A DNA stretch of 64,000 nucleotides. Source: Scenedesmus sp. PABB004 (taxonomy: Eukaryota). The notes below the pieces were generated by a model. That model worked only from the letters and a program-made list of their open reading frames with translations, was not told the DNA's origin and ran no database searches. Location: the NCBI GenBank assembly GCA_014905635.1, contig JABVCE010000052.1:1-64000 (forward strand), written 5' to 3'. This document shows, in pieces, positions 1,367-46,425 of this stretch; within the stretch, counting starts at the first letter, position 1, and the number at the start of each line of letters is the position of its first letter. A program made the translations under genes and the position numbers.

Positions 1367-3801
1367 ATGGGCCTGGGCCCGCTCCCGACCGCGCCAGCCG
1401 GCGTTCCCGCCGCTGGCTACGGCGGCGGCGGCGGGCAGCAGCTCACTGCCGCTGTCGTGGTCGTCTGCTGCGTCGCCGCCTCGGGGGGCCTCCTGTTCGG
1501 CTACGACCTGGTGGGCCCTGCAGCGCTGCGCACAGCCCTAGCCTGAGCCGTCTGCTCGGAGCACAGGGCAGACGCAGCGGCGGCGGCCGCTGCCGCCGGT
1601 GACGCCGCTGCCGACGCTCGCGCGTGCCGCGGCCGCCCGCGCCGCAGGGCGTGACGGGCGGCGTGATGGCGATGCACAGCTTCCAGGTGGGCCGGCGCCA
1701 GCCGCCCCGCGCCCCGTCCAGCCCGCAGCAGCGCCCAGCCCGCCGCGTGCCGCGCGCCGTGTGGGCCGCTGACCGCACGCCCGCCCGCCCGCCCGCGCGC
1801 GCGCGCGCGCGCGCGCGCGCGCGCGCGGCAGGCGCTGTTCTTCCCGCACCTCGCGGCCGCGGCGGCGGCGGCGGCCAGCCCGTGGTGCTCCTACGCCGAC
1901 GCGGGGCTGCAGCTCTTCACGAGCGCCATCTTCCTCGCCGGCGCGTGCAGCACGTTGGTCGCGGCGGGCCTGAGCGCGCGGGGGCGCAAGCTGACCATGC
2001 TCCTTGCGGGCCTGTGCTTCCTCGCGGGCGTCGCGCTCTGCGCCACCGCGCGCGTGCTGGCGGCGCTCATCTGCGGGCGCGTGCTGCTCGGGCTGGGCGT
2101 GGGCCTAGCTAACCAGGCGGTGCCGATCTATCTGTCAGAAATGGTGCGCGCGCGGCGTCGCCCGGCGGCGCGCCGCGCCGGTGGCAGCGGCGGCAGCGGC
2201 TGCGCGGCGGCGCGCGCGGCTGAGCGCGCGCTCTCACGCTCTGCGGACCTGGCCGCGCTGCGCTGCGCTGCGCTGCGCTGCGCTGCCCCCCCCCTCTTTA
2301 GGCACCGCCGTCGCTTCGGGGAACGCTGAACATCACGTTCCAGCTCGCGACCACGTTTGGCATGCTCGTAGCGCAGCTGGTCAACCTCGGCACGGCCCGA
2401 TTCGACTGGGGCTGGCGGCTCAGCATCGGCCTGGCCGGTGAGCGCGCGAGCGCGGCGCGGCGGGCGCGCCGCGGCGCCCTGCGAGGAAGCGCCGCCGCGC
2501 AGCCCCGCCGGCCCGGGGCGCCCACCCGCCCCGCGTGCGCGCGCAGGCGTGCCGGCCCTGATCCTCACGCTGGGGGCGCTGGTCCTGCCTGAGACGCCGT
2601 GCTGCCTCGCGGAGCGGGGGCGGCCCGACGTGGCGCGGCGCGTCCTGGCGAGGCTGCGCGGCGGCGAGTCGGCGCAGGTGGAGGCGGAGATGCGCGACAT
2701 CCTGAGCGCTGCGCAGGCGGTGCGCGCGCCGCGGGGCGGCATGCCGGACCACGGCGGCGGCAGCGGCCGCCCGCGCGCACCGCGCCGCGCCGCCCTCACC
2801 AGTCTCGGCGCCGGCGCCTCCGCGCGCGCCCAGAGCGCGGGGCAGAGCACGTGGCGCGCGTGGCGGCGGCTCTTCTCTCGAGGCTGCCTGCCCGAGCTGA
2901 TCAGCGGCACCGCGGTCGCCGCGTTCAGCCAGGCAAACGGGATCAACGCTTTGTTGTTCTATTCAGCCGCTGTGTTCGCCAGCCTCAAGCTCGCCACGCA
3001 CGTCGCGCTGCTGAGCGCGTGCGTCATCGGCGGAACCCTGTTCCTCGGCACGCTCGTGTCGATGGTCCTGGTCGACAGGTGCGCGCGCTGCCCGCGCGCG
3101 CGCGCCCGCCGGGTGGCGGTGGCGGCGGCCGCGCGCGCGTGGTCACGCGCGGGCAGCGCGCACGCGGGCGGCGGCAGCGGCCCGCATGCACGCCCCTGCG
3201 AGCGCCGCCGCCGCCGCCGCCGCCCGACCCGCCGCGCAGGGTGGGGCGCCGGCCGCTGCTGGTGCAGGGCGGGCTGCAGATGCTGGTCGGCTTGCTGGGC
3301 ACGGCCATCGTGCTCGCGGTGGTCTCGAGCGGCTGGGACGCGGCGGCGCTCGCGAGCGGCGCGTCGCTGATGAGCCACGGGACGGCCGAGGCGGTGCTGG
3401 TCTTCATGTGCCTGCACGTCGCGGGCTTCAGCTGGAGCTGGGGCCCGCTCGGCTGGTGCGTCCCGAGCGAGATCATGCCCCTGCGCGTGCGGTCAACGGG
3501 GCAGGCCTTCTTCACGTGCGTGAACTTCATGTGCGCGTTTGCGGGGACCCAGACCTTCTTGTCGCTGCTCTGCGCCATGCACTGGGGCGTCTACCTCTTC
3601 TTTGCTGTGTGGGTCGTGGCCATGGTTGCGTACGCCTGGGCCCTGCTGCCGGAGACGCGCGGCTGGCCGATCGAGCGCATGGACGAGCTCTGGGCGCGGC
3701 ACTGGTTCTGGCGCCGGCTCGCGCCGCCGGCGGCGCCGCACGAGCTGCCGCAGCATCAGGGCGCCGCCGCGGCGGGGGCTGACTGCCGCGACGGGGCCTG
3801 A
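1367..3801 (+). CDS. MFS sugar porter, HUP/STP-like hexose/H+ symporter (multi-exon)
   Basis: Motifs [82 protein letters not shown] at 3937-3941. Confidence 0.93.
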
Positions 3802-3941: not shown

Positions 3942-4303
3942 GCACGCGTGCGCACCTGGCCGGCGCGGCGGGCGTGCTGCGCGCGCGGCGCGGGCGGCGG
4001 GCGCGGCGGCCACGGCGCTGCGTCCCCGTGCTGCTCCTTGGCGTGCTGGTGCACGCCCCCGCGTTGCCTGGGCGTGTGAGCGCCTTCAGCCAGGGGTTTC
4101 GGGGCTGAACAGCAGCGGCTGCTGCCCCCTCGCCTCCTGCGCGCCCTGGCGTTCCGGTCGCCCCGCCCGCCGTCTACCCCGCACTCCCGTCTCTCGGCGC
4201 CCCACCTCTGCGCAGGCCGCGCCTGCGAGGCCCGTCCTGCTGCTCGCCCCGCAGCAGCCTGCTGCTCCGGCTCGCGCGCTTGGGCCGCGCCTGACCGGCG
4301 ACG

Positions 4304-6809
4304 ATGCTGCCGGCCGTGGCCGCCGCGTGGCCGGCGGGCGGCCTGGCGCAGCACCTGGGCGGCGTGCTGCAGCATGCCGGGCGATGGTGGGCCACTGCGG
4401 GCGATCAGGGCCACCCCGCGCCGCAGCGCGCCCGCCTCGGCACGCCTGACCCGCCCGCTATCGCCCCGCTCAGCCTGCGCGCCATGAGCGGCGCCGCAGC
4501 GCCGGCCGCGCCGGCCGCTGAGCGGACGAGCTTCGGCAACCTCAAGGACGAGGACCGCATCTTCACAAACATTTACGGCCGCCACGACCCCTTCCTGAAG
4601 GCGCGCGCGGCCGCGGAATGCAGCGGCGCGCCGCGCCGCCCGGCAGCGGCGGCGCGTGGCAGCGACGGCGGCAGCAGCGGCCGAGCGCCCCGCTCGCGCG
4701 CCGCGGCCGCAGGGCGCGGAGGCGCGCGGCGACTGGTACCGCACCAAGGACCTCGTCGTCAAGGTGCGGCGCGGGCGGCGGGGGTGGCGCCAGTGGCAGC
4801 GGGCCCTGCGCGGCGCAGCGGCGGCGGGCCGCGCGCCGCTGGCCGACGCGCGGCGCGCCGTGCGGCGCGCTCTGCGGCGCCGCAGGGCAGCGACTGGATC
4901 GTGGACCAGATGAAGAAGAGCGGCCTGCGCGGCCGCGGCGGCGCGGGCTTCCCGTCGGGCCTCAAGTGGAGCTTCATGCCCAAGGTGCGTGCAGCAGCGC
5001 CAGCGCCGCCCCGCGCGGGGCGCGCGGCCAGCTGCGACGGCAGCGACGGCAGCGCGGCCGGCGGCCGAGGCGCGCGCGCGCGCGCTCCCCTGTGTCGCCA
5101 GGTGTCTGACGGGCGGCCGAGCTACCTCGTGGTCAACGCTGACGAGAGCGAGCCGGGGACGTGCAAGGACCGCGAGATCATGCGCCACGAGCCCCACAAG
5201 CTCGTGGAGGGCTGCCTCATCGCGGGCGTGGGCATGCGCGCGCGCGCAGGCTACATCTACATCCGGTGAGCACGCCCCGCCGCCGCGCGTTGCGTCTGGC
5301 GCGCGGGCGCCGGCGCAGCGCGCAGCGCAGCGCGCAGCGCGCAGCGCGGCCCGCCGCCGTCGCCGCCGACGCGCCCCCGCCCTCCATCCTGCCGCGCGCA
5401 GGGGCGAGTTTGTGGCGGAGCGGCTCGCGGTGATGCGCGCGGTGGAGGAGGCGTACGCCAAGGGCTACCTGGGCAAGAACGCGTGCGGCAGCGGGTACGA
5501 CTTTGACCTCGCCGTGCACTACGGCGCGGGCGCCTACATCTGCGGCGAGGAGACGGCGCTCATCGAGTCGCTCGAGGGAAAGCAGGCACGACACCCGCGC
5601 ACCCCCGCGGCAGCGCCCGCGCCCCGCGCAGCAGCGCGCGCGCCCCGCGCGGCAGCGCGCGCGCCGCGGGCGGCGGCGCTGCGGGGCGCGCCGAGCCGCC
5701 GCGCCGCGTGCAGGGCAAGCCGCGTCTCAAGCCGCCGTTCCCCGCGGGCGTGGGGCTCTACGGCTGCCCCACGACGGTGACCAATGTGGAGACGGTGAGC
5801 GTGAGCCCGACCATCCTGCGGCGCGGGCCCGACTGGTTTGCGGGCTTTGGGCGCAAGAACAACAGCGGCACCAAGCTCTACTGCATCAGCGGCCACGTCA
5901 ACCGCCCCTGCACCGTGGAGGAGGAGATGAGCATCCCGCTCAAGGAGCTCATCGAGCGCCACGCCGGCGGCGTGCGCGGCGGGTGGGACAACCTGCTCGC
6001 CATCATCCCCGGCGGCTCCAGCGTGCCCCTGCTGCCCAAGGCGCGCCGCGCCGCGCGACACGCGCTGCGCCCGCGCGCGGCGGCCGCCCGCGCGCTCGGC
6101 GGTCGCCCGCGCCCGCGCGCCCCCGCCGACCGCGCGGCGCGCCGCCCGCGCCCGCGCCCGCGTCGCGCGCAGCCGATCTGCGACACCGTGCTGATGGACT
6201 ATGACGCGCTGAAGGAGGTCCAGAGCGGCCTGGGCACGGCGGCGGTGATCGTGATGGACAAGAGCACCGACGTCATCGACGCCATCGCGCGGTGCGATGC
6301 CCCCCCCCCCCCCCGGCCCCGCGCCCGCGCCCGCGCGCGCCCGGGCGGCCGGCCGGCCGTGGCGCTGCCGCCGGCTCACCCCGCGCGGCGCGCGCAGGCT
6401 GTCGTACTTTTACAAGCACGAGAGCTGCGGCCAGTGCACGCCGTGCCGGGAGGGCACTGGGTGGCTGTACGACATCATGACGCGCATGGTCAAGGGCGAC
6501 GCGCGCGTGGAGGAGATCGACATGCTCTGGGAGATCACCAAGCAGATCGAGGGCCACACCATCTGCGCGCTCGGCGACGCCGCCGCCTGGCCGGTGCAGG
6601 GCCTCATCCGCCACTTCAGGCGCGCGCGCGCTGCCGCCGCCCGGGGGGCAGCTCGGCGGCGAGCGCGCGCGCCCGCGCGCGCGGCGGCGCCCGGCGCCCT
6701 GACGCCCCCGCCCCGCTCCACCGCCCCCCGCTCCACCGCCCCCCGCCCCAGGCACGAGATGGAGGACCGCATCAAGTTTGCCCACCAGGAGCGCATCGCC
6801 GCGGCGTGA
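4304..6809 (+). CDS. NDUFV1: NADH:ubiquinone oxidoreductase 51-kDa flavoprotein subunit (NuoF), 9 exons
   Basis: [78 protein letters not shown]. Introns 4601-4712, 4764-4885, 4985-5101, 5266-5401, 5586-5713, 6041-6172, 6292-6397, 6620-6751. Confidence 0.97.
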
Positions 6810-7137
6810 GCAGCGCGCAGGGACGGCGACTGGTAGTAGCAGCTGGGCTGGTTTGCCGGCGCTCCAAACTACTAGTAGGCAGATGTGTAAGCAACGGCTG
6901 GCTGTGTGCGCGCGCAGATCTGCGGTCGAGAGTTGGCCGCCGCGTCTGCCGTGCGAGCGGCGCAATATCGGTCAGCAGGGTCGGGCGTTGCTACATGCGC
7001 CGCGGCGAGTGCCAACTGCAGTTCTGCAGCCCCGCTGCTACGCGGCCAGCCAGCCGGCCTGCATGAAGATGGGGCAGTCTCAAGAGTCCCCCCCTCCACC
7101 GCCACCCCGCTCGCCGCCGCCGCGTCGCCGGCGCGCC

Positions 7138-8492
7138 TCAGCCGCGCCACGACCTTCGCTGCAGCTCGCTGAAGGCCCAGTCCAGCTCCTCCTCCGGCAC
7201 GTAGCCGCCAGCCTTGTAGCGGTCCACCACGGCCTTGACCTTGCGCAGCGCCTCCGCGTCCTCGGCCGCGATGCGCGCTCGTGCCGCCTCGATGCTCTCC
7301 GACGCGGTCGCGCGGATGCGCTGCTGCGCGGCCGCGACCGACTCGTACGCTTGCGAGCGCAGCCGCTCGCGCGCCTCCTGCGGGCGGCGGCGGCGGCGGC
7401 GGCGCGTTTGAGCGCAACCACCCGCTGCGGGCCGGGGCTGCGCCGCACGCCGCGCCCGCCGCACCTCGAGCGACTCGTTGGCGCGCCAGGCCGCCGCGCG
7501 CCCCGCCGCCTTGGCCTCCTGCTCTGCCGCGGTGATGCGTGCGCGCGCATCTGTCAGCGAGCGTTCCCAGGGCGCTTCGAAGCCGGCGGGGCCGCTGGCG
7601 CCCTGGCTGCCAGCGCTGCTACCGGCATCGCCGCTGCTGCGGCGGCTGCTGTCGGCACTTGCGCTGCTGCTGCCGGCCATCGCGCGGGCGCTGCCAGCGT
7701 CCGCTTGCGGCGGCGTTGCGGGCCCGCTGGCGCTGGCGCTGGCAGTCTGCTGCGCGGCGCCGCCGCCGCCCAGCAGCTCCATGAGCTCCGCCTGCTCCTG
7801 CCCGATCTTCTCCGCCAGCTTTGCGGCCAGCGCGTAGTTGACCTGGCTGCGGCCGCTGGTGCGCGCCAGCACCTCGGCGACGGCGACCTTCTCCTGCAGC
7901 ACCGCGCGCGCGCCCGGCTCGTCGCCCTCGGCCACCTTGTCGAGCGCGAGGCGCTCCAGCAGGCGGGCCATCTCCTCGAGCTTCACCGCGGTGCGCGCGC
8001 ACGACTCGGCTGCGCCTCCGCGCGGCCGGCGGCGGCGCGGCGTGGCGGGCGTGGCTGTGTGTGAGGGCACTCAGCAGGGCCAAACCAGGGCCCTCGATCC
8101 CCCGCGCGCTCCACGTCCGCTGGCGCGCATCACTGCCGCGCGCGGCACGGCGCACCCGTCTTGACTGCATCATCGCGTTCGGCCTCGAGCAGGCGCAGGC
8201 CGTCGGTGAGCGCCAGGATGCGCGTGTCAGACGCCTCACTGTTGCGCTCCGGCACTGCGGCGGCGGCGGCCGCGCGCTCGCGAGCGCGCATGCATGCGCC
8301 GTGCTGCGGCAGCAGCACCGCACCTGCCCTGGCGAAGCTGGCCCGCGCCCAGCTGGAGGAGCCACGCCATTGGCGGAGGGCGGGTCGTTGCGGGGCGCCG
8401 CGTGGCGGCCAGGCGGCGGTGCGCCGCGCCGCACGGCAGCGCAGCAGCGGCGCGCGCGGCAGCGCCGGCCCCAGCGCGCTGGCGGCCATCAT
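7138..8492 (-). CDS. Hypothetical helical/coiled-coil protein with transit-peptide-like N-terminus (about 3 exons)
   Basis: MMAASALGPALPRAPLLRCR...LLEAERDDAVK joins via a GT-AG intron to AESCARTAVKLEEMARLLE..., ending WAFSELQRRSWRG*. Normal amino-acid composition. Confidence 0.7.
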
Positions 8493-8834
8493 GGCGCGGC
8501 GGGAGACGGCCACGGCAGGCACCGAGCGACGTGGCGGCTCTGGGCGGCCTGTGGGCTCCCCAGCTCGCGTCCGCAGGCGCGGGCATCGTCAGTGACACTC
8601 GGGCTTTTTCCGGCCAAATCCGCGGTGCCTCGCCGCGTGCAGGCGCCCAGCGCGCGCATTAGGTGACAGGCGCCCGACGCTGCTTCGCGCCGCCAGCCCC
8701 GTCCGGCTGCGCAGAGCGGCGGCCGGAGCAACGAGCCGCTGCGCCCGCCGCTGCCGCGCACCCCGCGCCAGCGGCGGCCATGCAGGCGCTCGCGCGGCAG
8801 CCCGGCGTGGGGTGCGCCCGCGGTGCCGGGGCCA
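8421..8834. repeat. ~414-bp direct duplication, copy A (bidirectional promoter plus both start codons)
   Basis: Near-identical to 19949-20360. Confidence 0.93.
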
Positions 8835-10337
8835 CGGGGCGCGGCGCCGGCGCGGCTGGCGGAGCGGTGAGGGCCGCCAGCAGCGGCAGCGGCGGCGCGG
8901 CTGGCGGAGCGGCGAGGGCCGCCAGCAGCGGCAGCGACGGCGCGGCTGGCGGAGCGGCGAGGGCCACCGCAGCGCCGGGGAGCTGGCGCATGCCTGCGCG
9001 GCGAGGGCCGCCGCCGGCAGCAGCGGCAGCGCGGCTGGCGGAGCGGCAGGCGTTCAGCAAGCGCGAGGTCGTGCAGCTCGGCTCGCTGCAGGTGTCGCCC
9101 ATGGGCCTCGGCACGTGGTCATGGGGCAACAGGCTGCTGTTCGGGTACGATCCGAGCATGGACGGCGAGCTGCAGGCCGCGTTCAACGCGAGCGTCGCGG
9201 CGGGCGTGAACATTTTTGACACTGCCGACAGCTACGGGACTGGCACGCTCAACGGGCGCAGCGAGACGCTGCTGGGCCGCTTCATCCGGGAGTACCCAGG
9301 CTCGCCCCGCGTCGCGGCCAACCTTCACGTGGCTACCAAGTTCGCGTCATATCCGTGGCGCCTGACGCCGGGCAACATCGTCGCGTCCTGCAAGGGCAGC
9401 CTGCGGCGCACGGGGCTGGACCAGCTCAGCCTCGGACAGCTGCACTGGTCCGCCAAGAAGTACTTCCCGCTGCAGGCGCGCGGCAGCGGCGGCGGCGCGC
9501 GCAGCGCAGCGCAGCGGCGCCGCAGCGCGCCGCCGAGGTCTGCCGCCGCCGCCGTCGGTGCGCAGGAGTGGGCGCTCGTCAACGGCCTGGCCGACTGCCA
9601 CAACCAGGGGCTCGTCGCGGAGGTCGGGGTCTCCAACTATGGCGCGCGGGAGCTGCGCCGCGTGGCGCGCGACTTTGAGCGGCGCGGCATCAAGCTCGCG
9701 TCGGCGCAGGTGCGGCGCCGCTGGGGCGGCGGGGCGCCGCCGGCGGCCCGCGGCGCGCGACGCCCCGCCGCCCGGCGCGCAGGTGCAGTATTCGCTGCTG
9801 AGCTGCGGCCCCGCACAGCGCGAGGTCGCGGCGGTCGCGGCCGACCTGGGCGTCGTGCTCATCGCCTACAGCCCCCTCGCCCTCGGCCTCCTCACCGGTG
9901 CGCCGGGCCTCGCGCAGCGCCGCGGGCAGCACGGGGCTGCCGCCGCGAGCGGGGCTGCTGCGTGTGCGCGCGTGCCTGCGCCGAGCGGGCCCCGCGCGCG
10001 CGGCCGCGCCGCCGGCGCAGGCAAGTACAGCGAGGCGTCGCTGCCCCCCGGACCGCGCGGCGGGCTGTTCAAGCGCCTGCTGCCGGGCATCGCGCCGCTC
10101 ACGCGCGCGCTGGACGCCGTCGCGGCCAGCCGGCGGAGGACCGTTTCGCAGGTCGCCATCAACTGGTGCATGGCCAAGGGCACGGTCCCCATCCCTGGCG
10201 CAAAGGACCTCGCCCAGGCACGGGCCAACCTCGGCGCCCTCGGCTGGCGGCTCAGCGCGGGGGAGGTCGCGGAGCTCGACGCCGCCGCCGCGCGGTGCAG
10301 CAGCGCCATGGTGCAGAACATCTTCCAGACGGCCTGA
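8780..10337 (+). CDS. PLR1: Aldo/keto reductase, plant PLR1-type pyridoxal reductase
   Basis: VSPMGLGTWSWGN, FDTADSYGTG.LNG.SE.LLG, VATKFASYPWRLT, VGVSNYG, AYSPLALGLLTGKY, QVAINWCM.KGTVPIPG, C-terminal MVQNIFQT. These match Arabidopsis PLR1 as I recall it. Confidence 0.88.
8849..8965 (+). repeat. 45-bp coding tandem repeat (GAAGGA.RAASSGS.) x~2.6 in the PLR1 N-terminus
   Basis: Units start at 8849, 8894 and 8939. Confidence 0.85.
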
Positions 10338-10613
10338 CGATGATGATGCTGCGCTGGCTGCTGGGTCGGCGCGCAAAAACGCGGCGGCCTGGCGGCGCGC
10401 AAACGCAGCGGCGGGAACCGGCCGCTGCGCCACCCCGCGTGGCCCCAGACTCTGCCCGCGTGTGCCAGAACGCATCACCGCCACGAGCGCCGACCGGTCG
10501 ACCGCAGCGACCCCGCCCAGCCGCAGTGCGCCGCGGGCGTGCCTGGAATCATCAGCTGTGCTTGCTGCCCCGCCTGCTCGCGGAGCGGCGCCCGGCGCCC
10601 GGCGAGGAGAGCT

Positions 10614-20494: not shown

Positions 20495-23467
20495 TCAGAC
20501 GCTGGCGCCGTTCTCCTCCTCGCCGCTGCCGGCGCCGCCGCCCGGCGGCGTGCGCGGCGCCTTGTCGGGCAGCAGGCGCAGCCGCGCGTCCGCGCCCGCG
20601 CCGACCACCTCGGCGGCGAGGCCGTAGCGGCCCGCCATCTCGGCCTGGGCCTTGCGCACCAGCTCGCTGCGCGGCAGCAGCTCCACCGGCTGCTGCAGCG
20701 GCAGCACGATCGACTCTGCTGCCAGCCGCGCCTCCTCCAGCCCCTCCTCCTCCTCCGCCAGCGCGCGCGCCACGCCGCCGGCGCGCGGCCGCGGCGACGC
20801 GGGGCTGCTGCCCAGCGGCTCGTCGCCCTCCCCCTCGCTGCCCTCGTCGTCCGCGCTCGCCCCCGGGCTGGCGCCGGCGGCACTCGGGCTGCGCGGGACC
20901 CACTCGTCGTCGTCCATGCTGCCGCGGCTGCCAAACAGCCCGCCCGCGCTGGGCTCCAGGCCGAGCAGCGTCCTGAACGCGCGCACGAGGTTGGCGCTGC
21001 TGCTGCTCTTGATCGCGTAGACCGGCACGCCCGCCGCCCGCGACGCGGCGCGCAGCGACGCGTTGGCCTTGAGCCGCGACCGCACCGCCAGCACCGCGTC
21101 CGCCTCGGCCGGCCGCGGCGCGAGGTACACCTGCGCGCGCGCCGCGCTGCGTGACCGGCGCGCGCGCCACACGCGCCGCGCGTGCGCGGTGCGCGCCGTC
21201 ACCCCCCCCCCTCTGCACGCGACGCGGGCGCGGTGGGTCACCTTGTCGTGGAGGCCCATCGCGCTCATGACCTCCCACAGCCGCTCCTCGTCCAGCTCGG
21301 CCACGTGCAGCCGCAGCAGCGCGCCCTCGGGCGACTCCGCGCCCAGGCGCACCGCGCGCCCGCGCCGCGTGAGGGTGGGGCCTGCGCGGCGGGCGCGGGG
21401 CGGGTGAGCGCTCGCCCGGCGCGGCCGCTGCGCTGGCGCGGCCGGCGCCAGCGCCCGCAGCGGCGCTGCCGTGCGCCGCGCGCGCTCACCCGCGCCGGGC
21501 GTGAGGTCGGGCGCCTCGCTGCCAAACGCCCGCCCCCGCACAAAGCCGCCGCCGCCTCCGTCGAGCTCCGGCTCGCCGCCCGGCGCGCCGGCGCCGCCCG
21601 CGGCGCCCGGGCGGCGCAGCTCCGGCAGCACGCGCCCGGCGGGCCCGTCGCCGGGCGGCGCGCGCGCGCCGCTGCTGCGGTACTTGAGGATTGAGCCGTC
21701 TGGCGCGCGCTCGCGCACCTGGCCGCCGGGCGGCGCGCCCGCGAGCAGCGCGTCGACCGCGCCGCCGACGTCGGCGTACACCACCCACCGGCTGCGCTCC
21801 AGCATCTCCACCGCGACGTCAAACGTCGGCGGCGCCGCGCGCTCGAGGATCGACTTTTGCACGCCGCGCCGCTTCGCCTCGTCGTCGCCTGGCGGCGCGC
21901 GCGCGCGCGCGGACGGGCGGCGCCTGGTGGGCGGCGGCGCGCGCGCGGCACGCGGCGGGGTGTTGACCCCCCTCTCTCTCACCGAGCGTGACGCTCTGGA
22001 TGCCGCCGACGAGGTCGCAGAGCGCGGGGTTCTTGATGAGGTTGGCCAGCTCGTTGCCGTGCGCGGTCGCGACGAGCTGCACGCCGCGCTGCGCGATCGT
22101 GCGCGCGGCCGCGGCCTCGGCCTCTGTGCCGATCTCGTCGATGACCACGACCTGGGGCATGTGGTTCTCGACCGCCTCGATCATGGTGCGGTGCTGCACC
22201 TCGGGGTCGGGGACCTGCATGCGCCGCGCGCGGCCGATGCCCGCGTGCGGGACGTCGCCGTCGCCGCCGATCTCGTTGCTCGTGTCCACCACGACCACGC
22301 GCCGCTCCAGCTCCTCCGCGAGCAGGCGCGAGAGCTCCCGGATCGCGGTCGTCTTGCCCACGCCGGGGCGGCCCATGAACAGCACGCTCGCGCCGCTGCC
22401 CACCAGGTCGGCCACGAGCGCCGCGCTGCCGTGGATCGCGCGCCCCACGCGGCACGTGAGGCCCACGATGCGACCCGAGCGGTTGCGCAGGCAGCTGATG
22501 CGGTGCAGCGTCGCGTCGATGCCCGCGCGGTTGTCGCCGCCAAACTCGCCCACCTGACCACCCCGCGGCGGCGGCGGCGGCGGCGCAGGCGCGGCATGAG
22601 GCGCGGCATGAGGCGCGGCATGAGGCGGCGCGCGCGCGCGCGTGGGCCGCGGCAGCCCCGGCGCCCACGCCCCGCTGCGGCGCGGCGCCGCTGGCCCTGG
22701 CGCGGGCGCGGGCGCGGCGGGCGCTGCGCGGCGTGCCGCGTGCGCGTGCGCGGGGGGTTTCGCGCGCCTGCTCGACCGCGTAGTCCAGGTCCGCCTGCGC
22801 CACGGGCGCGTCGCTGAGCGGCTCGTCGGCGCCGGGGAAGCGCGCGAGCGGGGGGCGCCCCAGGTCCATGACCACCTCCAGCAGCTCGTACAGCCGCGCG
22901 TGGCCCTCCAGCGCGCCGCGCACTGCGACGAGCCACCGCGCCCGCCCGGCGGCGGCGGCGTCGGCGGCGGCGGCGGCGTCGGCGGCGTAGCTGCGCGGCG
23001 TGCGCGCGCGCGCGGCGCCCGCCGAGCCGTGCGCCGCGCCGCGCCGCTGCGCCGGGCTGCCCGCGCGGGCGCGCACCCGACGGCGGCAGCAGGCGCACGA
23101 GCTTCAGCGTCTCCTCAATCTCCTCCTCCCACTCGCGCTGCCGCTCCTCCGCGGCGGCGGCTTCGTCCGCGGCCGCGCCCGCGTCTGCAGCAGCGCCGGG
23201 CGACGCCGGCGCCGCCGTGGCCGCCGCCGCCGAGGCCGCGGCCGCGCCGCTGGCACCCGCGCGCGGCGCCAGGCGCGCGCCGCGCCGCGCCCGGCGACAG
23301 CAGGTCGCCGACGGGCCGCCCCAGCCCCAGGAGGCCAGCGCCGGCGCCGGCGCGGGAGCCGGCACGCGGGCCCGCGGCGGCGCCGGGGCCGCGGCAGCAG
23401 CGGCCCCGCCGCGCCCGCCACCACACGCCGCGCCGCGCGGCGCGGCGCTGCCGGCGCGCGTCCGCAT
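20495..23467 (-). CDS. Ycf45-like SpoIIIAA-type P-loop ATPase with C-terminal R3H-like region
   Basis: [27 protein letters not shown], Walker [63 protein letters not shown]. Confidence 0.9.
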
Positions 23468-31573: not shown

Positions 31574-33050
31574 ATGGAGCTGGGCGCAGACCCGCTGGCG
31601 GGGCACCCCCGCTACGAGAGCCTGGGCCGCACGCTCAAGGCGGGGGGCCGCTCCTCCGTGGTCCTGGCCCGCGACCGCACGACGGGCGAGACGGTGGTGA
31701 TCAAGCTCACGCAGCGCGGTGCGCCGCGCGGGCGCTGCTGCTCCCGCTGCCGCCGCCGCCGCGGCCTGCCCGCCGCTTGCCGCCCGCCGCTGCGTGGCGT
31801 GCGCCACCCGCCCCCACGCCCCCGCGCCCACGCGGCCGCCCGGCCGCCCGGTGCGCAGGCTGGGGCGGGAGCGCGGCCAAGTACCTGCTGCGCGAGCTGC
31901 TCATCCACGCGGAGCTGTCCGCCTGCCGGCACCCCCACATCGTGGAGCTGCGCGACGTCTTCCTCAGCGCCACCCACCTCGCTGCGGTGAGCGAGTACGT
32001 GGCGGGGGAGGACCTGCAGACCTTCCTGGCCAACACCGGCGGCCGCGTGAGCGAGGCGCTCGGGCGCTTCCTCTTCCAGCAGCTCGTGCTCGCCCTCGAC
32101 TTTTGCCACGCGCGCGGCAAGGTCTGCCGCGGCGTCAAGCTCGCCAACACGCTGCTCGCGCTCGCGCCGGGCCAGCTGCCGCTGGTCAAGCTCGGCGACT
32201 TTGGGTTCAGCAAGGACACCACCGCGCACTCCGCGCCCGCGAGCCAGGCGCGCACGCGGCGCGGCCCGCGCGCAGCACGCGGCGGGGCGGCCCCGCGCGC
32301 GAAAAGCACGCGGCGGCGCGCCGCCGCTGCCGCCGCCACCGTCGACACTGCGCCGGCGCCGCCGCCGCCGCCGCGCAGGTTGGCACCGCGCTGTTTGTGG
32401 CGCCCGAGGTGATGCACAACTTCAGCGGCGCGCCCTACGACGGCGCCGCGGTGGACGTGTGGGCGGCGGGCATCGTGCTCTTCATCCTGCTCTTCGGCCG
32501 CCACCCCTTCCTGCGCCCCGACGACAGCGCACTGCCCGAGCAGGCACGCGGCGGGGCCGCCGGGCATGCCGCGGCCGCGCGGCGCGGCGCCGGCGCCGCC
32601 ACGGCGCCGCCCACGCCTTGCCGCGCCGCGCCGTGCGGCCGCAGGCCCAGATGCTGGCGCTGTTCACGCGCACCGCGGCGAGCCAGTTCTGCCTGCTGCC
32701 GGAGGAGGCGTGCGCCATCACGCCCGCCTGCGCCGACCTGCTGGGCCACATCCTGCAGACCAACCCCGCGGCGCGGTGCGCGCCGGCGCGGGGCGCGCTG
32801 GCGCGGGGCGCACGGGGCCGCCGCGCGGCCGCGGTGTCGCGCCGCGCCCTGCACGCGCGTCCCACGCGCGCCGCGCGCGCCGCGCCGCGCAGCTACACCA
32901 TGGCGCAGGTGCAGGCGCACCCCTGGTTCCGGCAGGGCCTGCCCGAGGGCGCGGGGCGCATGAACGCGGCCATCCTCGCCGACGCGGCGGCGCGGCCGCC
33001 CAGCCTGCGCTTCCCGCCGGAGGCCATCGCGGCGCTCGTGCAGGTGAGGC

Positions 33051-34345: not shown

Positions 34346-34816
34346 ACCAGCCTGGCGGCGGCGGCGCCGTGGTGCGGCCATGGCGGCGCAGTGGCGGGCG
34401 GGCGGGCGGGCGGGGGCTGGGACTGAGCTGCCAACTTCTGTGGGCGCGGCGCTGCCGGGAGGATACCCGCTGGGGGGCGCTGCCGGGGATCCGTGCGATA
34501 CTGTTTGCTGCCGACCTGGGGGAAGCGCGGGGGCAGGGAGGGGGGGGGAGGTCTGCCGCCGTCGGTTTGCGGCGCCGGTGCGGTAAGCTGGTTGACGGCG
34601 CGGCGGCAGGCGCCGCTCGCCGGCCGCAGTTGCACGCCGGCGCGCCAGTCAATGAAACAAGGCCGACGCGTGCCTTCTTGGCGCGCGCGGTGGTCAGAGC
34701 CGCGCCGCCACGAAACGCCCCCCTCCCCTGCTGGCCGTCCTGCCGGTCGTCATCGGGCGTTCACAGCCCCCCGCACCCCTGCGCGCGTCAACGTACCGCC
34801 CACACACCCCCGCGCG

Positions 34817-37800
34817 TCACCCCGCCGCCGCCAGGCCCGCGACCGCGCCGCGCAGCGCCTGCTGCCCCGCCGTCGCCTGCCGCGCGAGCGTCAGCAGCAG
34901 GGGCCTCAGCGCCGGGGCGGGCGCCTCGGGGCCGGCGCCGCCGCGGTGCACTGCCGCCGCGCCCGCCTCGACCGGCGGCGCGAGCTCGGCCACCGCGCTG
35001 TCCAGCTGCGCGGCGACCTCGGCGCCCTGCCCGCCGCGCCACGCCGCCTCGGCCGCCTCCATGGCCGCCGCCGCGGCCGCGCACGCCGGCGGCGCGGCCC
35101 CGCCGCCCTGCTGCGCCGCGGCGTCTCCGCCGGCGTCGCTGGTGAGCAGCAGGCGGCAGGTCTCGTCCTCCGGGCCCAGCAGGTCGGCCAGCTCCTCGCG
35201 GCTCAGGCAGACCATGTCAGCCAGGCCCGACGCGACCACCGCGGCGGCCGCCGCCGCCGCCGCGGCGCCGCCGTCGCCGTCCGCGCGGCCGCACTCGGCG
35301 GCGGCCGCGTTGGCGGGCGGCGGCCCCGCGGCCGCGCGCGCGGCGGCGTCGGCAGCGTGCTGCTGCAGCGCTGCGGCCGCGGCGGCCATCGTGCCCAGGC
35401 AGGCGAGCAGCAGGCCGGCCGCCGCGCGCAGCGCGGCGCCCGCTGCGGCCAGGCGCTCCTGCTGCCGCGCGGCGCCGCGCCGGTGCGCCGCGTCTCCCGC
35501 CGCCGCCTTCCTGGCTGCCGCCTCGGCCGCGCCGCGCGCGTCTGCGAGCTGCTCCCGCGTTCGCTCCAGCTCCGCGTTGGCCGCCTGCGCGCGGCGCAGC
35601 GGCCCAGGGCGCGGCGGTCGCGTCAGCGCGCGTGCGAGGATGGGGGGGCTCGCTGCCGCCGCCGAGGCAGCCTGCGGCTCGCCGCCGGCGCGCGCACCGC
35701 GAGCGCCGCCTCTTTGCGCGCCAGCTCGCTCCGCAGCCGTGCCGCGGCCTTCGTCGCGCGTGCGCCCTCCTCCGCCGCGCCCGCGCCCGCCGCCTGCGCC
35801 GCGCCGAGCGCCTCGACCTGCCGCCGCGCCGCCTCCAGCCCCGCCTGCGCGCCGCGCAGCGCTTCCTCCTTGCGCGCTAGGCCCGCCGCCAGCGTGCGCG
35901 CCTTGGCCTCCGCGACCGCCAGGCGCGCAGCGTCCTCTGCGCCCTGCTTCGGCGCAGCTGCCAGCTCGTCGGCGCGCGCCTTGAGGTCCCTGGTGGTGGT
36001 GGCGGCGGTGGTGGTGCGTGGGTGAGTGCGTGCGCGTGTGCATGTGGGGGTGGCGCGTCAGGGGTGCACAGCCGGTGCCGCCCCGCCCCGCAGCGGGCGC
36101 CGCCAGCGGCCGACCAGACGTTGCTTCCCCCAGCCAGGCCCTCACCGTATGGCCGCGTTCTTGCGCTCCAGCGCGGCCCGCGCCTCGCGCAGCCGCGCCT
36201 CGGCGCCCTCCCGTGCGGCCGCCGCGCCCGCGAGCTCGCGCTGCAGCACCAGCAGCACGCCGGACAGCTCGCTGCCGTCGCCGCCCGCCGCGGCGAGCAG
36301 CGCGCCCGCCTCTACGCCGCCCGCGCCGCCGGCGGCCGCGGCCGCGGCCGCCACGGCGGTGGCCGTGGCGCGCTGGCGGCGCGCCGCCTCGGCGCGCGCG
36401 GCGCGCAGCGCCTCGCGCGCGGACGCGAGGTCGGCCTGCGCGCGCGCCGCCTCGTCCCTGGCGGCCGCCGCCTCAACCGCCGCGACCGCGCCCGCTGTGG
36501 CGGCGCGGCGCAGGCCCTCTGCGTCGGCTGCGGCCGCCCGGAGCCGTGCCTTGAGCCGCGCCGCGACGCCCCGCGCCGCCTCGGCGGCCGCCTCCGCCTT
36601 GCCGCGCGCGAGGCGCTCCAGCCGCGCGTCGCGCCGCGCCGCCGCCAACGCGTCCGCCTCGCGCGCCGCCGCGAGCAGCCCCGCGGCCAGCCCCGCGACG
36701 TCGACGCCCTCGCCCTCGCCAGCGCCGCAGGCCGGCCAGCGCGCCGGCTGGTGCGCCGCCTGGCGTGCCCCCGCGCCGCGCGGCGGCGGCGGCGGCGCGC
36801 CGCGGCCGGCCGCGCCCGCGCGCCGCGCACCGAGCGCCGGCCGTGCAGCCGCCTGCCTGCCGCCGGCGGCCGCAGCGCCGCCGCCGGGCCTGCTGCCCGC
36901 CACGCGCACGCCCGGCCTGCCGCCCCGGAGCTGGTGGTGCAGCGCCGCGGCCAGGCCGCCCCAGGCGCTGCCGCCGGCGTTGAGCGCCGACTGACGCCGC
37001 CAGCGCGCCGCCGCGGCCGAGGCAGGCGGCGCGAGCCGGCCCCAGCCCGCGTCGTCATCCGCGCCGCCGGGGCTGTCCGCGCCGCTGCTCGCGCCGCCCA
37101 CAAACTCGGCGGCCACCGACGCGGGCGCCGCCTGCAGCAGCGCCTCCAGCCGCGCCTGCAGCGCGCCCAGCTCCCGCGCCTTGGCCGCCTGGTAGCATGC
37201 GACCTCCTCCGCCAGCGACGCGAGCGCGGCCTCGGCCGCGGCGCGCCCCGCCTCGGCCGCCTCGAGCCGCCCCGCGACCGCGGAGGCCGCGGCGGCCTCG
37301 CCGTCGGCGACGGCGGCGTCGAGCTGGCGCCGCAGGCCGGCCACCTCGGCCTGGTGCCGCGCCCGCGCCGCCGCGAGCTCCGCCTGCGCGTCGGCGGCGG
37401 CCGCCTCGGCCGCGTCCTGCGCAGCGCGCGCCCGCGCTGCAGCGTCGCTGAGCGCCGCCACCTCCGCCTCAAAGCCGGCGGTCGCGTCGGCCAGCTGCGC
37501 CTGCAGCGCGCCGAGCTGGCCCGCCAGCGCCGTGGCGCCGGCCATCGCATCGCCGTGCTCCGCCGCCTGGCCCGCGCTCGCCGCGGCCAGCGCCTCCAGG
37601 CGGCGCTCCAGGCCCATCACGCGCGCCTCCACGCCCGCCGACGCGCCCAGCAGCGAGAGCAGCTGGCCCTCCAGCTGCTCGCCGGCCTGACCCGCGCCGC
37701 CAGCGAGCGCCTCGCCGCGCGCGAGCAGCGTGCCGGCGGCGCCCACGCTGCCGGCGACGCGGCCCAGCACCGCCGCCTCGGCCGCCTCCACCCGCGCCAG

Positions 37801-40800
37801 CAGCGCGGCCGCCTGGCCGTCGTCCAAGCCCTGCGCCTGCTGCGCGGCCGCGAGCTGCTGCCTGAGCTGCCGCAGCTCGCGCTGCGGCCCCGCGCCGGCG
37901 ACCGCCGCGGCGCCGCCGGGCTCGGCGGCGCCGCCCGGCTGCGCCGCGGCCATGCTGTCAGCGGCGTCGGTGAGCGCGCCGCCGCCTTGCAGCCGCGCGC
38001 TGAGCGCGGCGACGTGGCCGGCCAGCGTCCGGGCCTTTGCCTTCCACCTGCTGCACCGCCGCTGCTGGGCGTCCGCCGCAGCCTGCAGCGCCGCGAGCGT
38101 GGTGGACGGCACGGTGACCAGCTCGCCGCCGTCCGCAGGCGCGGCGCCGCCGGCCGCCAGCCCCGCGGCGCTCGGCTCAGCCTGCCGCGGCGAGCGGCGG
38201 CCCGACAGCGAGGGCGAGGACGCCGTTGGCGAGGCGTCGCCGCCGCCGCCCGCAGCGCTGCCGGTGGGCCAGGGCGCGCCGGCCAGCTGCTGGCGCGCGC
38301 CAGCGCCGCTGCTGGCTGCGCTGCCGGCAAGGGTCGGCGGCTCAGCTGGCGCGTTGGGACGGTGCAGGCGTGGCGCGAAGCTGAAGTCCAGCCCCGCCAC
38401 ACCGTCCGCGCCGCTTGCCGCCGAGGCGTGCCCGGGCGAGCCCGGCGCCTGGCCGCTGGCGCCACGCGCACGCTGCAGCTCCGCCTCAACCTCCCTGCGC
38501 CGCGCGCGCGTGCGTGCACAGGACCGGGCAGGTCAGCGCGCGTGGCAAGAGCGCAGCGCAGCGCCCCGCCACCCCCTCCCGCCCGCCGCGCGCACCGCAG
38601 GCGGCGCGCGAGTCGCTCCGCCTCTGCCGCCGCGCCGTCCTTGGCGCGCAGGAAGGCGGCGTTCTCACGCGTCAGCCGCGCCAGCAGCCCGCCTAGCTCC
38701 TTGGCCGCCGCCGGGCTCAGCGCGGCGCCGCCGGGCTTGCCGCCCGCCTCGCCGCCGGCGCCGCCGCCTGCCGTGGCGTTCGCGCACGCGCCGCCGCCCT
38801 CGTCCGCGCCTGCGCCGCCGGCGATGAGCCGGCTCGCCGCGGCCGCGAGGCCCACGTTCTGGCCAGCCATCGCGTCCCGCTCCGCCGCGAGCGTGGCGGC
38901 CGTCGCCACGAGGCGCTCGCGCTCCGCGTCGGCCGCGCGCAGCGCGGCCGCGGCGCGCGCCGCCTCGCGCCGGGCGGCGTCGGCGTCGGCCGCGGCGCGC
39001 GCCGCGGCGTCTGCGTGCGCGTCGCGCTCGGCCGCCGCGGCCGCGGCCGCCGCGGCGCCGCGCGCGGCCTCGGCCTGCGCGGGCGCGAGCGCCTCGTGCA
39101 GGTCGTCGCGGCGCCGCATGAGGCCCGCGTTCTCCCGCGTCAGCCGCGCCAGCATCGCCCCAATCTCGCGCAGCTGCCCCGAGCTCAGCCGCGGCCGCGC
39201 CCGCGCCGCGTCGCCACTCGCGCATGCGCCGCCCTCGGGGGCCGCCCCCTGCGCGGACGTGTCGCCGCCGGCAACGCCCCCCCCCGCGCTGCCGCCGGAG
39301 AGGGAGCCAACGCCGCCGGGCTCGCACTCGGGCGCAGCGCCGCGCCACGCGTGCGGCTCGCCCGGCGGCGCCGCGTCCATCAGCCGCTGTGCCGTGGCCG
39401 CAAGCGTGGCGTTCTGCTCGGCCAGCGCGTCGCGCTCCGCGCGCACGCCCGCGACCTGTGGCGCGCCCGGAGGCGTCAGCGCGCGCACAGCGTGCGCCCG
39501 CGCCACCGTCCCCCCGCTGCCACGCGGCCCTCACCTGCGCGCGCAGGGCATCGTGCGCCGCCGCGAGCTCGTGCGCCCGGCCCCTCAGGCCCGCCGCGTC
39601 GGCCTCGAGCTGCCCCCGCACCGCCGCCGCCTGCGCCGCACCGCGCTCACACGCCGCGAGCTGCGCCTGCAGCGCGCCCGCCTCCTGCGCTGCGCCCGCC
39701 AGCTGGCCGGCCAGCGCCGCGCGCTCCGCCAGCGCAGCGTCCCTGCGGGCGCGGCGCGGCGGCAGCGGCTCGGCCGCTGACGCGGCGGCCGCCGGCGCGC
39801 CTCTCGAGCGCGCCCCCCCCCCCTCCCCCGTGCGCACCTGGCCTTGATGAGCGCCGCATTCTCCCGCGTCAGCCGGGCCATGAGGGACCCAATCTCCTGC
39901 AGCTGCGCCGCTGTCGGCGCGGGGCCGGCGCCGCCGGCGCTGCCGTCGCCGCCGGCGGCGGGCTGGCCGCAGTCAGACTGCGGCGGCGTGCGCGGGCCGA
40001 TGCCGCGGGGCGGCGCCGCGCCCGCGCCCGCCAGCTTGGCGCTCAGCGCGTCCGCCAGCGCGGCGGCCTGGTGCGCGAGGCTGTCGCGCTCCGCGCCCGC
40101 GGCGGCGAGCTGCGGAGCGAGCATTGGCGCGGCGGCGGAGCGCGTGAGCGGAGCAGCGCGCGCGCAAGCAGGCCTGCGGTCTCGCCCCGCCCGGCCACGC
40201 ACCTGCTTCGCCAGCTCGTCCCGCGCGGCGGCGGCGGCCTCCAGCCGGGCGGCCAGGCTCTGCTTGTCCGCCGCCGCCGCCTCCAGCCCCGCCGCCGCCG
40301 CCTCCAGCTGCGCGGCCAGGTCGGCTTGCGCCGTGGCCGCCTCGGCGGCGCCGGCGCGGGGCGAGGCCGGCGCGCTGCTGCCCGGCCGCTGCCGCGCGCT
40401 GCCGCCGGCGGCGGCAGCCGCCGCCTCGGCCGCCTCCACCGCCGCCGCCGCCGCGGCGAGCTTGTCCTGCACCTGGTAGACGACCTCCGCCAGCGCCTCC
40501 TCCAGGCCCAGCCCCGCGACCTCGGCCTCCACCTCTGCGGCCACGCGCGGCTCCGGCTCCGCGCCCAGCACGAGCTCGCCGAGCACGCGCCGCGCGGTCG
40601 CGAGCGCGGACGACAGCTGCGCGCTCGCGCACGCCAGCACCTGCTCCTCCGCCGCCTGTGGGCCGCCGGCTGGCGAGGCCTGCGCCGCGGCCGACCGGCT
40701 GCTCGCCTGCCGCGCGAGCCGCGCCGCCGCCGTCGCGCTGTGCAGCTGGCGCGCGCCGCTGCCAAGCCCGCTGCCGAGCTGCAGCGCCGGCAGCCCGCCG

Positions 40801-43800
40801 CGCGCGCCGCTCCCGGGCCGCGCCAGCGAGCCGCTGCGGCTGCCGAGGCGCGGCGAGCGTGCGGCCGCACTGGGGTCCGCCTGCTGCGCCACGGCCTCGG
40901 CCAGGGCGCCCTCGAGGCGCGCCACCTCCGCGTCGCGCTTGGCCAGCGAGATGCGCAGCGCCGCAATCTGGTGCGCCAGGTACTCCTTCTCAGCGGCCGC
41001 CAGGCCCTGGCTGGACGCCAGCGCGACGCGCGCCGCCGGCGAGCGCGGGCTGGGCGGCTGCGCGCCGTCCGCGCCGGCGGCGGCGTCGGGCGCCTCCGCC
41101 GGGTGCTGTGGCGGCGTGAGGCCCTCGGCCACCCAGCTCTGGCGCTTCAGCGAGGCGCGCAGGCTGGCGGTGCCGCTGCTGCGCAGGCCGGGGCGCGCGC
41201 CGGCGCCCGACGCCTGCCTGCTGAGCGCGGGCGCGCCGCCCGCCGGCCGGCCGCCGCAGCAGCTCACCCACGCGGCGCTGCAGCGCGTCTGCCGCCCGCC
41301 CGCGCTCGGCCAGCTGCTCCTTGAGGTCCGACACGCGCGTGTCGCGCTCCGCGAGGCGCTGCCGCAGCTCCACCTCCACCCTGGGGCGCGCGGCGGGCGG
41401 CGGCAGGGAGTGAGGGCCCACCAGCCGCGGCTGCGGCTGGCGCAGCACACCCCGCAGCTGCCCGGACGCCGCCGCAGCCTGCAGGTCGCACCTCGCGCTG
41501 ACGCGCAGCTTGCGCTGCAGGTCCGCGGCCGCCATCTGCGCCTTGACCAGCTCCCGCCCCAGCCGCGACAGGCTGCCCGTGCCGCCCTCGCCGCCGCCGT
41601 CGCCGGCCGAGGCGCCGTCGTCGACGGCCGGCGCGCCGCCCGCGGCCTCGTCGCCGTGCTGGCTGCCGGGGCGGCTGCCGGCCCAGCTGCTGCGCTCGCT
41701 GGCGCTGCGGCGCACGCCGGGCGGCGTGCTGCTCCGGCCGCGCGGCGTGGCGCCGCCGCCGGCGCGCCTGCTCTCCGCGCGCTCGATGGCCGCCAGGGTC
41801 GCCTCCAGGCCGCGCACCGCAGCGCCCGTGACCTCGCCCGCGGCCTGCAGGTCAGTCACCTCGCGCTGCAGCGCCGAGACCTGGTCCTGCAGCGCGTCGC
41901 GCTCGAGCGTCAGCGCCTCCAGCTGCCCCTCCAGCAGCGCGCCGCGCACCTCGGCCGCGTGCAGCGCCGAGGACGCCGCCGCCGCCGCAGCGTCCGCCGC
42001 CGCCGCCGCGCTGTCCTGGGCGCGCTGCGCCGCCTCAGCGCGCTGCGTGCTCAGCGCCGCCGACGACTCGGCCGACTGCTGCTGCAGCAACGAGCGCAGC
42101 TCCTGTGCGGGCGGGACGCGGCGCGGGGCGTGAGCGACGCTGCACCAGGGCTGCGCCGCAGCGTTGAGACGCTGCGCGGCGCCGGCCGAGCGCGCCCACC
42201 TGCAGCTCGCGCCGCAGCCGCGCCTCCTCTGCCGCGGCTGCGGCAGTGAGCGCCGCGCGCTGCGCCGCCAGCGCGGCCGCGTCGGCGGCCTGCTGCTCCG
42301 CGCAGCTCGCGCCGGCCTCGTCAAGCAGGGACGCAAGCTCACCCACCTCCAGCTCGCGCGACGCCAGGCGCTGCGCGGGGCGCGGCGGGGCGCGGCGCGT
42401 CAGGGCGGCGGCCGGCCGTGGCAGCTTGCGCTGAGACCCCGCCCTTGCCCCTCACAGCGCCGCACCTGCTTGGTCTGCAGCAGCTCGTCCTGCAGGCGGA
42501 ACACCTCCTGCGCGCGCTGCGACGCCTCGGCGCTCAGCTGCGTCACCGCCGCCGCGGGGTCGTCCGCGCCGCCGCCGCAGCCGCCGCCCTGCTCGCCCGC
42601 TGCGAGCCTGGCCGCTGCCGCCTCGAGCGCCGCCGACAGGCGCTGGCTGCGCAGCGTGGCTGCGTCAGCCCGCGCGTGCGCGGCCGCCAGCGACGCCAGG
42701 AGCTGCGCCTCCACCAGCTTCAGCCCGCACAGCTGGCGGGTGAGCGCCATGGCCTGCGCCTCGCCCGCGCCGCCGCCGCCGGCGCCGTTGCCCAGCAGCA
42801 GCGCGACGCGGCCCTCAAACCAGCGGATGAGGGCCTCGTCACGCAGCGCCACGCCCTCGCTCGCCGACCCGGCCGCCAGGCCGCCGCCGCACGCCGAGTG
42901 GCCCTGCGCCCACTCCGCGCAGCCCGCCGCCTCCTGCGCCGCGGCGGCTGCCGAGCGCCGCAGGCTTTCGAGCTCGGCGGCGGACGCCTCCAGCTGCAGG
43001 GCGGCCGCCGCCGCGGCGCGGCGCGCGGCCGCGGCGGCGCTGCCGGCGGCGGCCGAGGCGGCCTGCGCGGCAGCGAGCTCCTCCGCGAGCTGCTGGTTCT
43101 GGGCGAACAGCGCCTCAATCCGCGCCTCCTGCAGCGCCAGGCGCTCGACCGCGTGCGCGGCCGCCTGCTCGCCGCGCCGCGCCGCGCCACGCAGCAGCGC
43201 CTGCCGGCCCGCCTCGGCGGACTGCCACTGCCCCACGAGGCGCTCCGCCGACGCCTGCGCCACGCCGAGCTGCGCGGCGAGGCTGGACGCGTGCTGCGCC
43301 GCCAGCTGCGCCTTGACCTCGCGCTGCACGTAGAGCCTGGGCGGGCGGGGCCAGGGCGGCGCGGGCAGGTTGAAGCGGCGGGCACGGCGGCGCGGTGCGC
43401 GCACCCGCGCGGCGGCCAGGCGGCGCGGCGCACCCACCTGTCGCTCTCCAGCAGCAGCTCCTTGAGCCGCACCACGACGCCGCCCACCCACGACACGTCG
43501 GCGCCGCCAGCCACCGGCGCCGGCGCGCCGCGGCCGCCGCGCCGCGCGGGCGCGGGCGCTGCGGCGCCGGCGGCTGCGGCGTTGACCGCGGCGAGCAGGC
43601 CGTCCAGGGCGAGCGTCACGTGCGCCACGTGCGCCGCGTAGGCGTGCGGGGGCGCGTCCGCCAGGCGCTGCTCCAGCGCGAGCTGGCCCGCGGCGGCTGT
43701 GGCCTGCCGCTCCCTGCGTGGCGCGGGCGCGGCGGCGGGCAGCTCGGCCGGCGGCAGGCGCAGCGCGGCGCCCGGGCCGGCGCAGCGCGCGCGTCTCCAC

Positions 43801-46335: not shown

Positions 46336-46425
<90 letters not shown>

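Follow-up and report, generated by a model that had tools for sequence, protein, structure and literature searches.

GC-AG introns at high frequency in a 64-kb, extremely GC-rich window of Scenedesmus-like nuclear DNA

Introns with a GC donor make up 1.3% of the total in the survey of Iwata & Gotoh (2011, BMC Genomics 12:45; PMC3033335) and ~1.2% of those in 121 plant genomes (Pucker & Brockington, 2018; PMC6310983), but far larger shares are reported in the first of these surveys for three algae with genome-wide guanine plus cytosine (G+C) contents of 66–70%, namely Aureococcus anophagefferens (39.6%), Micromonas pusilla (22.2%) and Chlorella sp. (7.7%). Its authors linked the GC-AG share to G+C content and inspected U1 small nuclear RNA (snRNA), reporting that the U1 genes retrieved for Aureococcus and M. 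pusilla carry the unchanged consensus over their 5′ 11 nucleotides (nt), AUACUUACCUG. In the haptophyte Emiliania huxleyi, GC donors form 56% of 241 curated junctions, and nine GC junctions are described as verified by reverse-transcription PCR (Feldmesser et al, 2014, BMC Genomics 15:148; PMC4028052); among pelagophytes, ~14–17% of introns are predicted to be GC-AG in high-GC species, as against 0.32% in a lower-GC relative (bioRxiv 10.1101/2024.10.30.620910). We report here on a 64,000-nt stretch of DNA (contig JABVCE010000052.1, positions 1 to 64,000, hereafter the window) with intron-rich genes of a Scenedesmus-like green alga, in which GC-AG introns occur at no less than ten times the usual level, the clearest of them being four of the eight introns in the gene for NDUFV1, the 51-kDa subunit of complex I. 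All GC-AG shares that we give for this DNA are those of one 64-kb window of one genome.

The window shares with the algae of Iwata & Gotoh, two of whose three species are green algae, a high G+C content together with a GC-AG share far over 1.3%: its G+C content exceeds 60%, and its GC-AG share, counted in the window, is several-fold above ~1%. It differs from them in belonging, to judge by its nearest proteins, to the Scenedesmaceae (Sphaeropleales), in its more extreme composition (74–83% G+C, against the 66–70% reported genome-wide for those species), in that its share derives from 64 kb only, and in that a strict dependence on exonic AG can be shown, albeit in a small sample. As in E. huxleyi, GC donors are forced by the mapping of sequences, there blamed by the authors on high G+C and described as missed by ab initio gene models; unlike that haptophyte, where GC is the majority donor and partly verified by reverse-transcription PCR, the window has a GC minority of ~14–20%, known from DNA alone. 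The pelagophyte shares are of the same magnitude as our estimate, although those species are stramenopiles and their figures genome-wide predictions. Ordinary plant and animal GC-AG introns are of the same U2 type with an AG acceptor, and the window departs from them in a frequency more than ten times higher. The phenomenon is thus not new in kind but a further, compositionally extreme case of a GC-AG excess that has been in print for GC-rich algae since 2011, and the novelty implied by an earlier, sequence-only reading of this DNA does not hold. A literature search, which did not extend to the supplementary tables of the surveys, found no report of GC-AG introns in Scenedesmaceae among the papers listed; a 2025 comparison lists the Scenedesmus strain nearest to the window among the few Sphaeropleales with >70% G+C (PMC12571836).

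The NDUFV1 gene (forward strand, 4484–6809; ATG at 4484, stop codon at 6807–6809) allows intron borders to be fixed with unusual stringency. Long open frames over 4295–7066 give piecewise matches to solved complex I 51-kDa subunits in the PDB (E values of 1e-55 to 1e-79) with the chain numbering continuous from piece to piece, and removal of eight introns leaves a 446-residue product, ~95% identical to the proteins of relatives, that aligns beyond its presequence without a single gap to three homologues (P0004, P0005 and P0007). For each intron we scored with BLOSUM62 every frame-compatible, stop-free pair of borders regardless of dinucleotides (5,863–10,558 pairs per intron). At four sites a GC-AG pair was the sole recognised splice pair among the top scorers: intron 1 (4601–4712, 112 nt, AAG/GCGCGC...CAG, the slash marking the exon–intron border), intron 5 (5586–5713, 128 nt, CAG/GCACGA...CAG, with homologues contiguous at the junction), intron 6 (6041–6172, 132 nt, AAG/GCGCGC...CAG) and intron 8 (6620–6751, 132 nt, CAG/GCGCGC...CAG). 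The best GT-AG alternatives fall 40, 53, 47 and 81 points lower, respectively, because they open indels where the alignment is otherwise free of gaps. The lengths of introns 1 and 5 shift the frame, so that both must be removed; introns 6 and 8 are in frame and free of stops, and reading through either would add a 44-residue insert at a cost of 54 points. At the junction of intron 6, moreover, the flanking chain residues (352/353) are contiguous in solved plant complex I.

The remaining four NDUFV1 introns, placed by the same alignment and border scan, have GT donors: intron 2 (4764–4885, AAG/GTGCGG), intron 3 (4985–5101, AAG/GTGCGT, supported by the PDB matches too), intron 4 (5266–5401, CCG/GTGAGC) and intron 7 (6292–6397, GCG/GTGCGA). 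Four GC-AG introns in eight, the very donors and letters proposed in the sequence-only reading, has a probability of ~2e-6 at a background of 1.3% and of 0.017 at one of 14%; the share is high even for this window, but unremarkable once NDUFV1 is seen as the most striking pick of ~15 genes. Translation probably starts further upstream, at ATG 4305, to judge from the sequence, and P0004 and P0005 begin with sequence similar to the peptide encoded by 4305–4483; the poorly conserved presequence may also contain an additional in-frame GT-AG intron at ~4387–4473 (87 nt), in which case the count would become four GC in nine. Isoforms of NDUFV1 in Tetradesmus obliquus carry inserts at residues 256 and 420, neither of which is an intron site in the window gene. 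Among metagenome relatives of NDUFV1 exon 6, 80 loci were kept, of which 64 had fewer than three high-scoring segment pairs to P0005 and the other 16 were without this gene's intron layout.

Homologues also place introns in three other genes. In a protein-kinase gene on the forward strand, five of them (two transcriptome-derived) define four introns, the outer two with GT donors (31719–31858 and 32776–32892) and the inner two with GC donors, both frame-forced (32248–32378, 131 nt, CAG/GCGCGC; 32544–32644, 101 nt, CAG/GCACGC). The 32248 pair scores highest with four of the five homologues and lies 2 points under the top with the fifth (P0124), the best GT-AG pair being 64–74 points lower; the 32544 pair is top with all five, and the scanned zone holds zero GT-AG candidates. 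The gene for a ycf45-like AAA ATPase, on the reverse strand, has GT introns at 23076–22923, 21982–21889 and 21241–21131 and a frame-forced GC-AG intron at 22767–22554 (214 nt, CAG/GCGCGC). Aligned to the Tetradesmus homologue P0138, the only one of the five homologues to extend over this exon, the GC-AG intron scores 120, whereas a GT donor 9 nt upstream scores 100; the spliced junction peptide of the GC-AG intron is present in the public annotated Scenedesmus sp. PABB004 protein P0137, which is 99% identical to the window product. All three GC donors had been listed in the sequence-only reading, and homology upholds them. A sugar-transporter gene that it had not flagged contains three introns, all GT (2144–2301, 2438–2546 and 3079–3239; homologues of 40–50% identity), plus two junctions at which homology leaves the choice between GT and GC ambiguous (1511/1541–1831 and 2720/2726–2845) and the ab initio model described below calls GT.

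Across these four genes, 7 of the 19 homology-placed introns are GC-AG (four of eight in NDUFV1, two of four in the kinase, one of four in ycf45 and none of three in the sugar transporter; P ~3e-9 at 1.3%), and five of the seven cannot be read through, because they change the frame. As a side observation on ycf45, P0137 reads through the in-frame GT-AG intron at 21131–21241 (reverse strand) that four of five homologues place, and extends into downstream sequence as far as 19140; public gene models around this gene look imprecise.

An eighth GC-AG intron is probable in an aldo-keto reductase (PLR1-like) gene (forward strand, 9476–9565, 90 nt, CAG/GCGCGC), where the sequence-only reading had also placed one. 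It is in frame and stop-free; the ab initio model prefers the GC class by a margin of 21–25 nats, and the Pfam aldo-keto-reductase profile is continuous across it, one exon ending at ~118 and the next starting at ~117. PDB searches with the exons of this gene gave nothing usable (one was run at an over-strict 1e-8 cut-off).

The frequency of GC donors over the window as a whole was estimated with a codon log-odds model trained on the homology-defined exons and introns, which reproduces the NDUFV1 exons within a few bases and delineates ~200 exon segments. Every G[T/C]...AG candidate between neighbouring exons of the same strand (146 pairs) was scored by coding potential and splice-site matrices and the GC share was obtained by expectation–maximization, two starts of which converged; 18 of the 19 homology-placed introns are recovered. 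The raw share over the 146 pairs, 0.48, was rejected as inflated: of 82 filtered pairs, 34 are in frame and open, so that an intron may not be needed there, and GC was called at 18 of these 34. A control in which the called donors were all set to T or all to C (0 and 82/82 GC calls, respectively) is circular: all it shows is the model's adherence to the best site. When restricted to frame-forced pairs whose class margin is clear, the calls comprise 12 GC in 45, or 7 in 34 outside the training genes, with five calls that lack a preceding AG and are doubtful. The 13 genes identified by Pfam yield 56 calls, 44 GT and 12 GC; the 12 divide into seven confirmed by homology, one supported by a profile, one false and three doubtful, giving 8–11 of 56 or ~14–20%. 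The sequence-only estimate of about ten in the window is therefore fair, with GC donors no less than ten times as frequent as usual.

The letters around the donors indicate how a C at the second intron position might be accommodated. The donor consensus that pairs with U1 is CAG/GTAAGT, and in GC-AG introns generally the lost +2 pair is offset by a stronger match of the flanking donor positions, especially an exonic AG. Exonic AG (as AAG or CAG) precedes each of the seven confirmed GC donors, as opposed to 4 of 12 GT donors (Fisher p=0.013), and all seven read GCGCGC (five) or GCACG (two), the mirror of the local GTGCG, so that the AG rule and the resemblance to GTGCGC proposed from sequence inspection hold at 7/7 confirmed sites. 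The mean match to CAG/GTAAGT is 5.36 of nine positions for GC donors and 5.5 for GT donors (Mann–Whitney p=0.76). With GCGCGC or GCACG after the junction, none of the seven is like a U12-type donor, the 5′ consensus of which is given as ATATCC in a figure legend of the 2011 survey (PMC3033335).

Base composition bears on the same position. The NDUFV1 introns are 90% G+C and 4.4% T, window introns generally are ~90% G+C with 4–6% T, and the first, second and third codon positions of NDUFV1 are 63, 47 and 96% G+C. The T at +2 is nonetheless retained in at least ~75% of donors, against 4–6% T in the intron bodies, and must therefore be under strong selection.

We consider it likely that these are ordinary U2-type spliceosomal introns, a sizeable minority of which have come to use GC donors through GC pressure, with compensation by exonic AG. 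Under a strong pressure of AT-to-GC substitution, whether from mutation bias or from GC-biased gene conversion, the introns would be driven to ~90% G+C and donor +2 T would be converted to C. A C in this position would survive only where the rest of the donor pairs with the 5′ end of U1 well enough, in practice after exonic AG; the −2/−1 pairs would make up for the lost +2 pair, leaving total complementarity equal to that of GT donors. An unchanged U1 needing a fixed amount of pairing would be expected to produce both the dependence on AG and the equality of the consensus match, and we infer that the introns are spliced in vivo by an unchanged spliceosome, with substitution bias as the cause of their GC donors. 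The sequence-only reading had gone further, proposing that GC pressure may have turned +2 T to C wherever tolerated, possibly with an adapted recognition by U1 or U1-C; the ~90% G+C of the introns and the AG rule fit this, but “wherever” is too strong, in that AG-ending exons still keep a GT donor in 4 of 11 confirmed cases and in 11 of 18 of the frame-forced ab initio set.

Several points weigh against our interpretation. The homology sample carries a bias: of its four genes, three had been flagged beforehand for their GC donors and the unflagged one shows 0/3. The one homology-placed intron that the ab initio model misses is a false GC call, in which it takes 21196 as the donor where GT at 21241 is correct. 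Its GC calls also include several that lack a preceding AG and have weak donor scores, and its fractions are upper estimates; 7 of the 13 recognisable genes are without any GC call. Splicing is read from homology and frame only, and the stretches beginning at 6041, 6620 and 9476, in frame and stop-free, could stay in the message as low-complexity inserts.

This last point can be taken as an explanation in its own right, namely that 6041–6172, 6620–6751 and 9476–9565 are in-frame, stop-free, low-complexity coding inserts retained in mRNA and are not introns at all. All three have lengths divisible by 3 (132, 132 and 90 nt) and are free of in-frame stops, and stop-free frames are the rule at 80% G+C; at this composition open frames are uninformative in the window, because its 64 kb contains 504 stop-to-stop open reading frames of at least 70 amino acids. 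The public annotation does read through one in-frame GT-AG intron, that of ycf45, which speaks for this reading. The proteins of relatives, transcriptome-derived ones included, are however contiguous at these places (hence the 54-point cost of read-through), the stretches have the composition of introns, the codon log-odds signal breaks exactly at the proposed borders, and the donor and acceptor motifs are identical to those of frame-forced introns. Retention fails altogether for the five frame-shifting GC-AG introns, and we regard it as unlikely.

A second possibility is that the splicing machinery of the lineage is altered (at the 5′ end of U1, in U1-C, in U6 or through base modifications) in such a way that it accepts GC as readily as GT. 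Nothing from the window speaks for this; it was raised by Iwata & Gotoh for Aureococcus and M. pusilla, because two Micromonas species of similar G+C content differ tenfold in their reported GC-AG share (PMC3033335). The GC donors of the window still need exonic AG (7/7) and have an equal total consensus match, as an unchanged U1 demands; GT is still the majority donor although T forms only 4–6% of intron bases; and the 5′ 11 nt of U1 are reported as unchanged in the published GC-AG-rich algae (PMC3033335). An Rfam scan of the 64-kb window gave 0 matches at the gathering score, and no snRNA gene was found in it. An altered machinery seems to us quite unlikely.

Very unlikely, in our judgement, is a third account, in which introner-like mobile elements carrying or creating GC donors were inserted recently and gave rise to the GC-AG introns, as has been reported for dinoflagellates; in some of these, introner-derived GC-AG introns are said in a review to prevail (PMC11282704). 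The two T. obliquus NDUFV1 inserts (256 and 420) lie off the intron sites of the window gene, and positions do vary somewhat between relatives. Against this, the 19 introns form no clear repeat family, in what is a low-power test on one window (best local scores of 29, 26 and 26, compared with a maximum of 21 after mononucleotide shuffling, a modest excess that is expected from (GC)n-like composition), and GC and GT introns are alike in length range and composition. The idea that the +2 C is an assembly or base-calling error masking true GT donors can practically be dismissed: although the G7 run of the PRCP-like gene described below is a possible homopolymer frame error in the assembly, homopolymer indels are a different type of error, and T would have to be misread as C at exactly +2 in at least seven introns and only after exonic AG, while 12 donors nearby have T in the same GTGCG context. 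U2-type introns with GC donors admitted behind exonic AG thus remain our preferred explanation.

Beyond the confirmed introns and that at 9476, three further GC-AG sites were considered, and CAG precedes the donor in all four cases. The first two had been named in the sequence-only reading. In an S28/PRCP-like peptidase gene on the reverse strand (62567–62470, CAG/GCGCGG), matches to solved PRCP stop at chain residue 364 in one exon and start at 375 in the next, and the ten residues between are supplied only by the 62567–62470 intron with one base added in a run of seven G (62445–62451). The PDB matches of the PRCP exon are weak (E values of 0.6–1.6, the first match having E=1.6) and the ab initio model favours another weak GC donor, 62580; the intron is plausible, given the 1-nt frame fix, and was excluded from the confirmed count. 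At this G7 run, on the reverse strand, the frame must shift by 1 base if the following conserved motif is to be preserved, which points either to an assembly error in the homopolymer or to a genuine frameshift. The second candidate (47624–47515, reverse strand, CAG/GCGCGCGC) is an ab initio call in a long low-complexity gene, with a class margin of 4.7 nats over the best GT donor and an ambiguous acceptor (47515 or 47509). It falls in a region, 34800–50400 of the reverse strand, that had been taken for a giant gene; its weak coding segments are rich in Ala, Arg, Gly and Pro and have no Pfam match, and most of the doubtful in-frame ab initio GC “introns” also fall there. The third candidate, missing from the earlier list, is frame-forced (54914–55134, forward strand, 221 nt, CAG/GCGCGG) and again called ab initio, with a margin of 12.3 nats.

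The DNA of the window is nuclear and comes from a Scenedesmus-like green alga. Its 4-kb bins all lie between 0.742 and 0.834 in G+C fraction; the nearest named proteins to its genes are those of Scenedesmaceae, and NDUFV1 exon 6 is 97% identical to that of Scenedesmus sp. NREL 46B-D3. In T. obliquus, whose G+C content is ~56%, the homologues of the kinase, ycf45 and NDUFV1 lie together on a 6.7-Mb contig under the locus tags 013128, 013151 and 013170, and such nearby tags on a single contig suggest conserved synteny between T. obliquus and positions 4484–33043 of the window.

In genomes of this kind, gene finders that allow only GT donors would mis-build a noticeable share of genes. The warning is prompted by two observations on annotation, namely that the window NDUFV1 product did not turn up in the protein clusters that contain its 95%-identical relatives and that the public ycf45 model reads through an intron. 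For the known link between G+C content and GC donors, the window supplies a case from the Chlorophyceae whose base composition is the most extreme, and in its small sample the +2 T is strongly kept and given up only behind exonic AG. No new question is opened, since the literature already contains the phenomenon, the cause suggested for it and an inspection of U1. A bolder proposition, which we would call doubtful, is that the lineage stands at the far end of the relation between G+C and GC-AG share in green plants, with a genome-wide share of 15–25%, a near-deterministic use of GC only after AG, and a U1 small nuclear ribonucleoprotein (through U1-C or base modification) or U6 tuned so that AG/GC splices like GT. 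If this were true, the lineage, together with relatives of 56% G+C, would be a natural system for measuring the effects of substitution bias on splice-site recognition.

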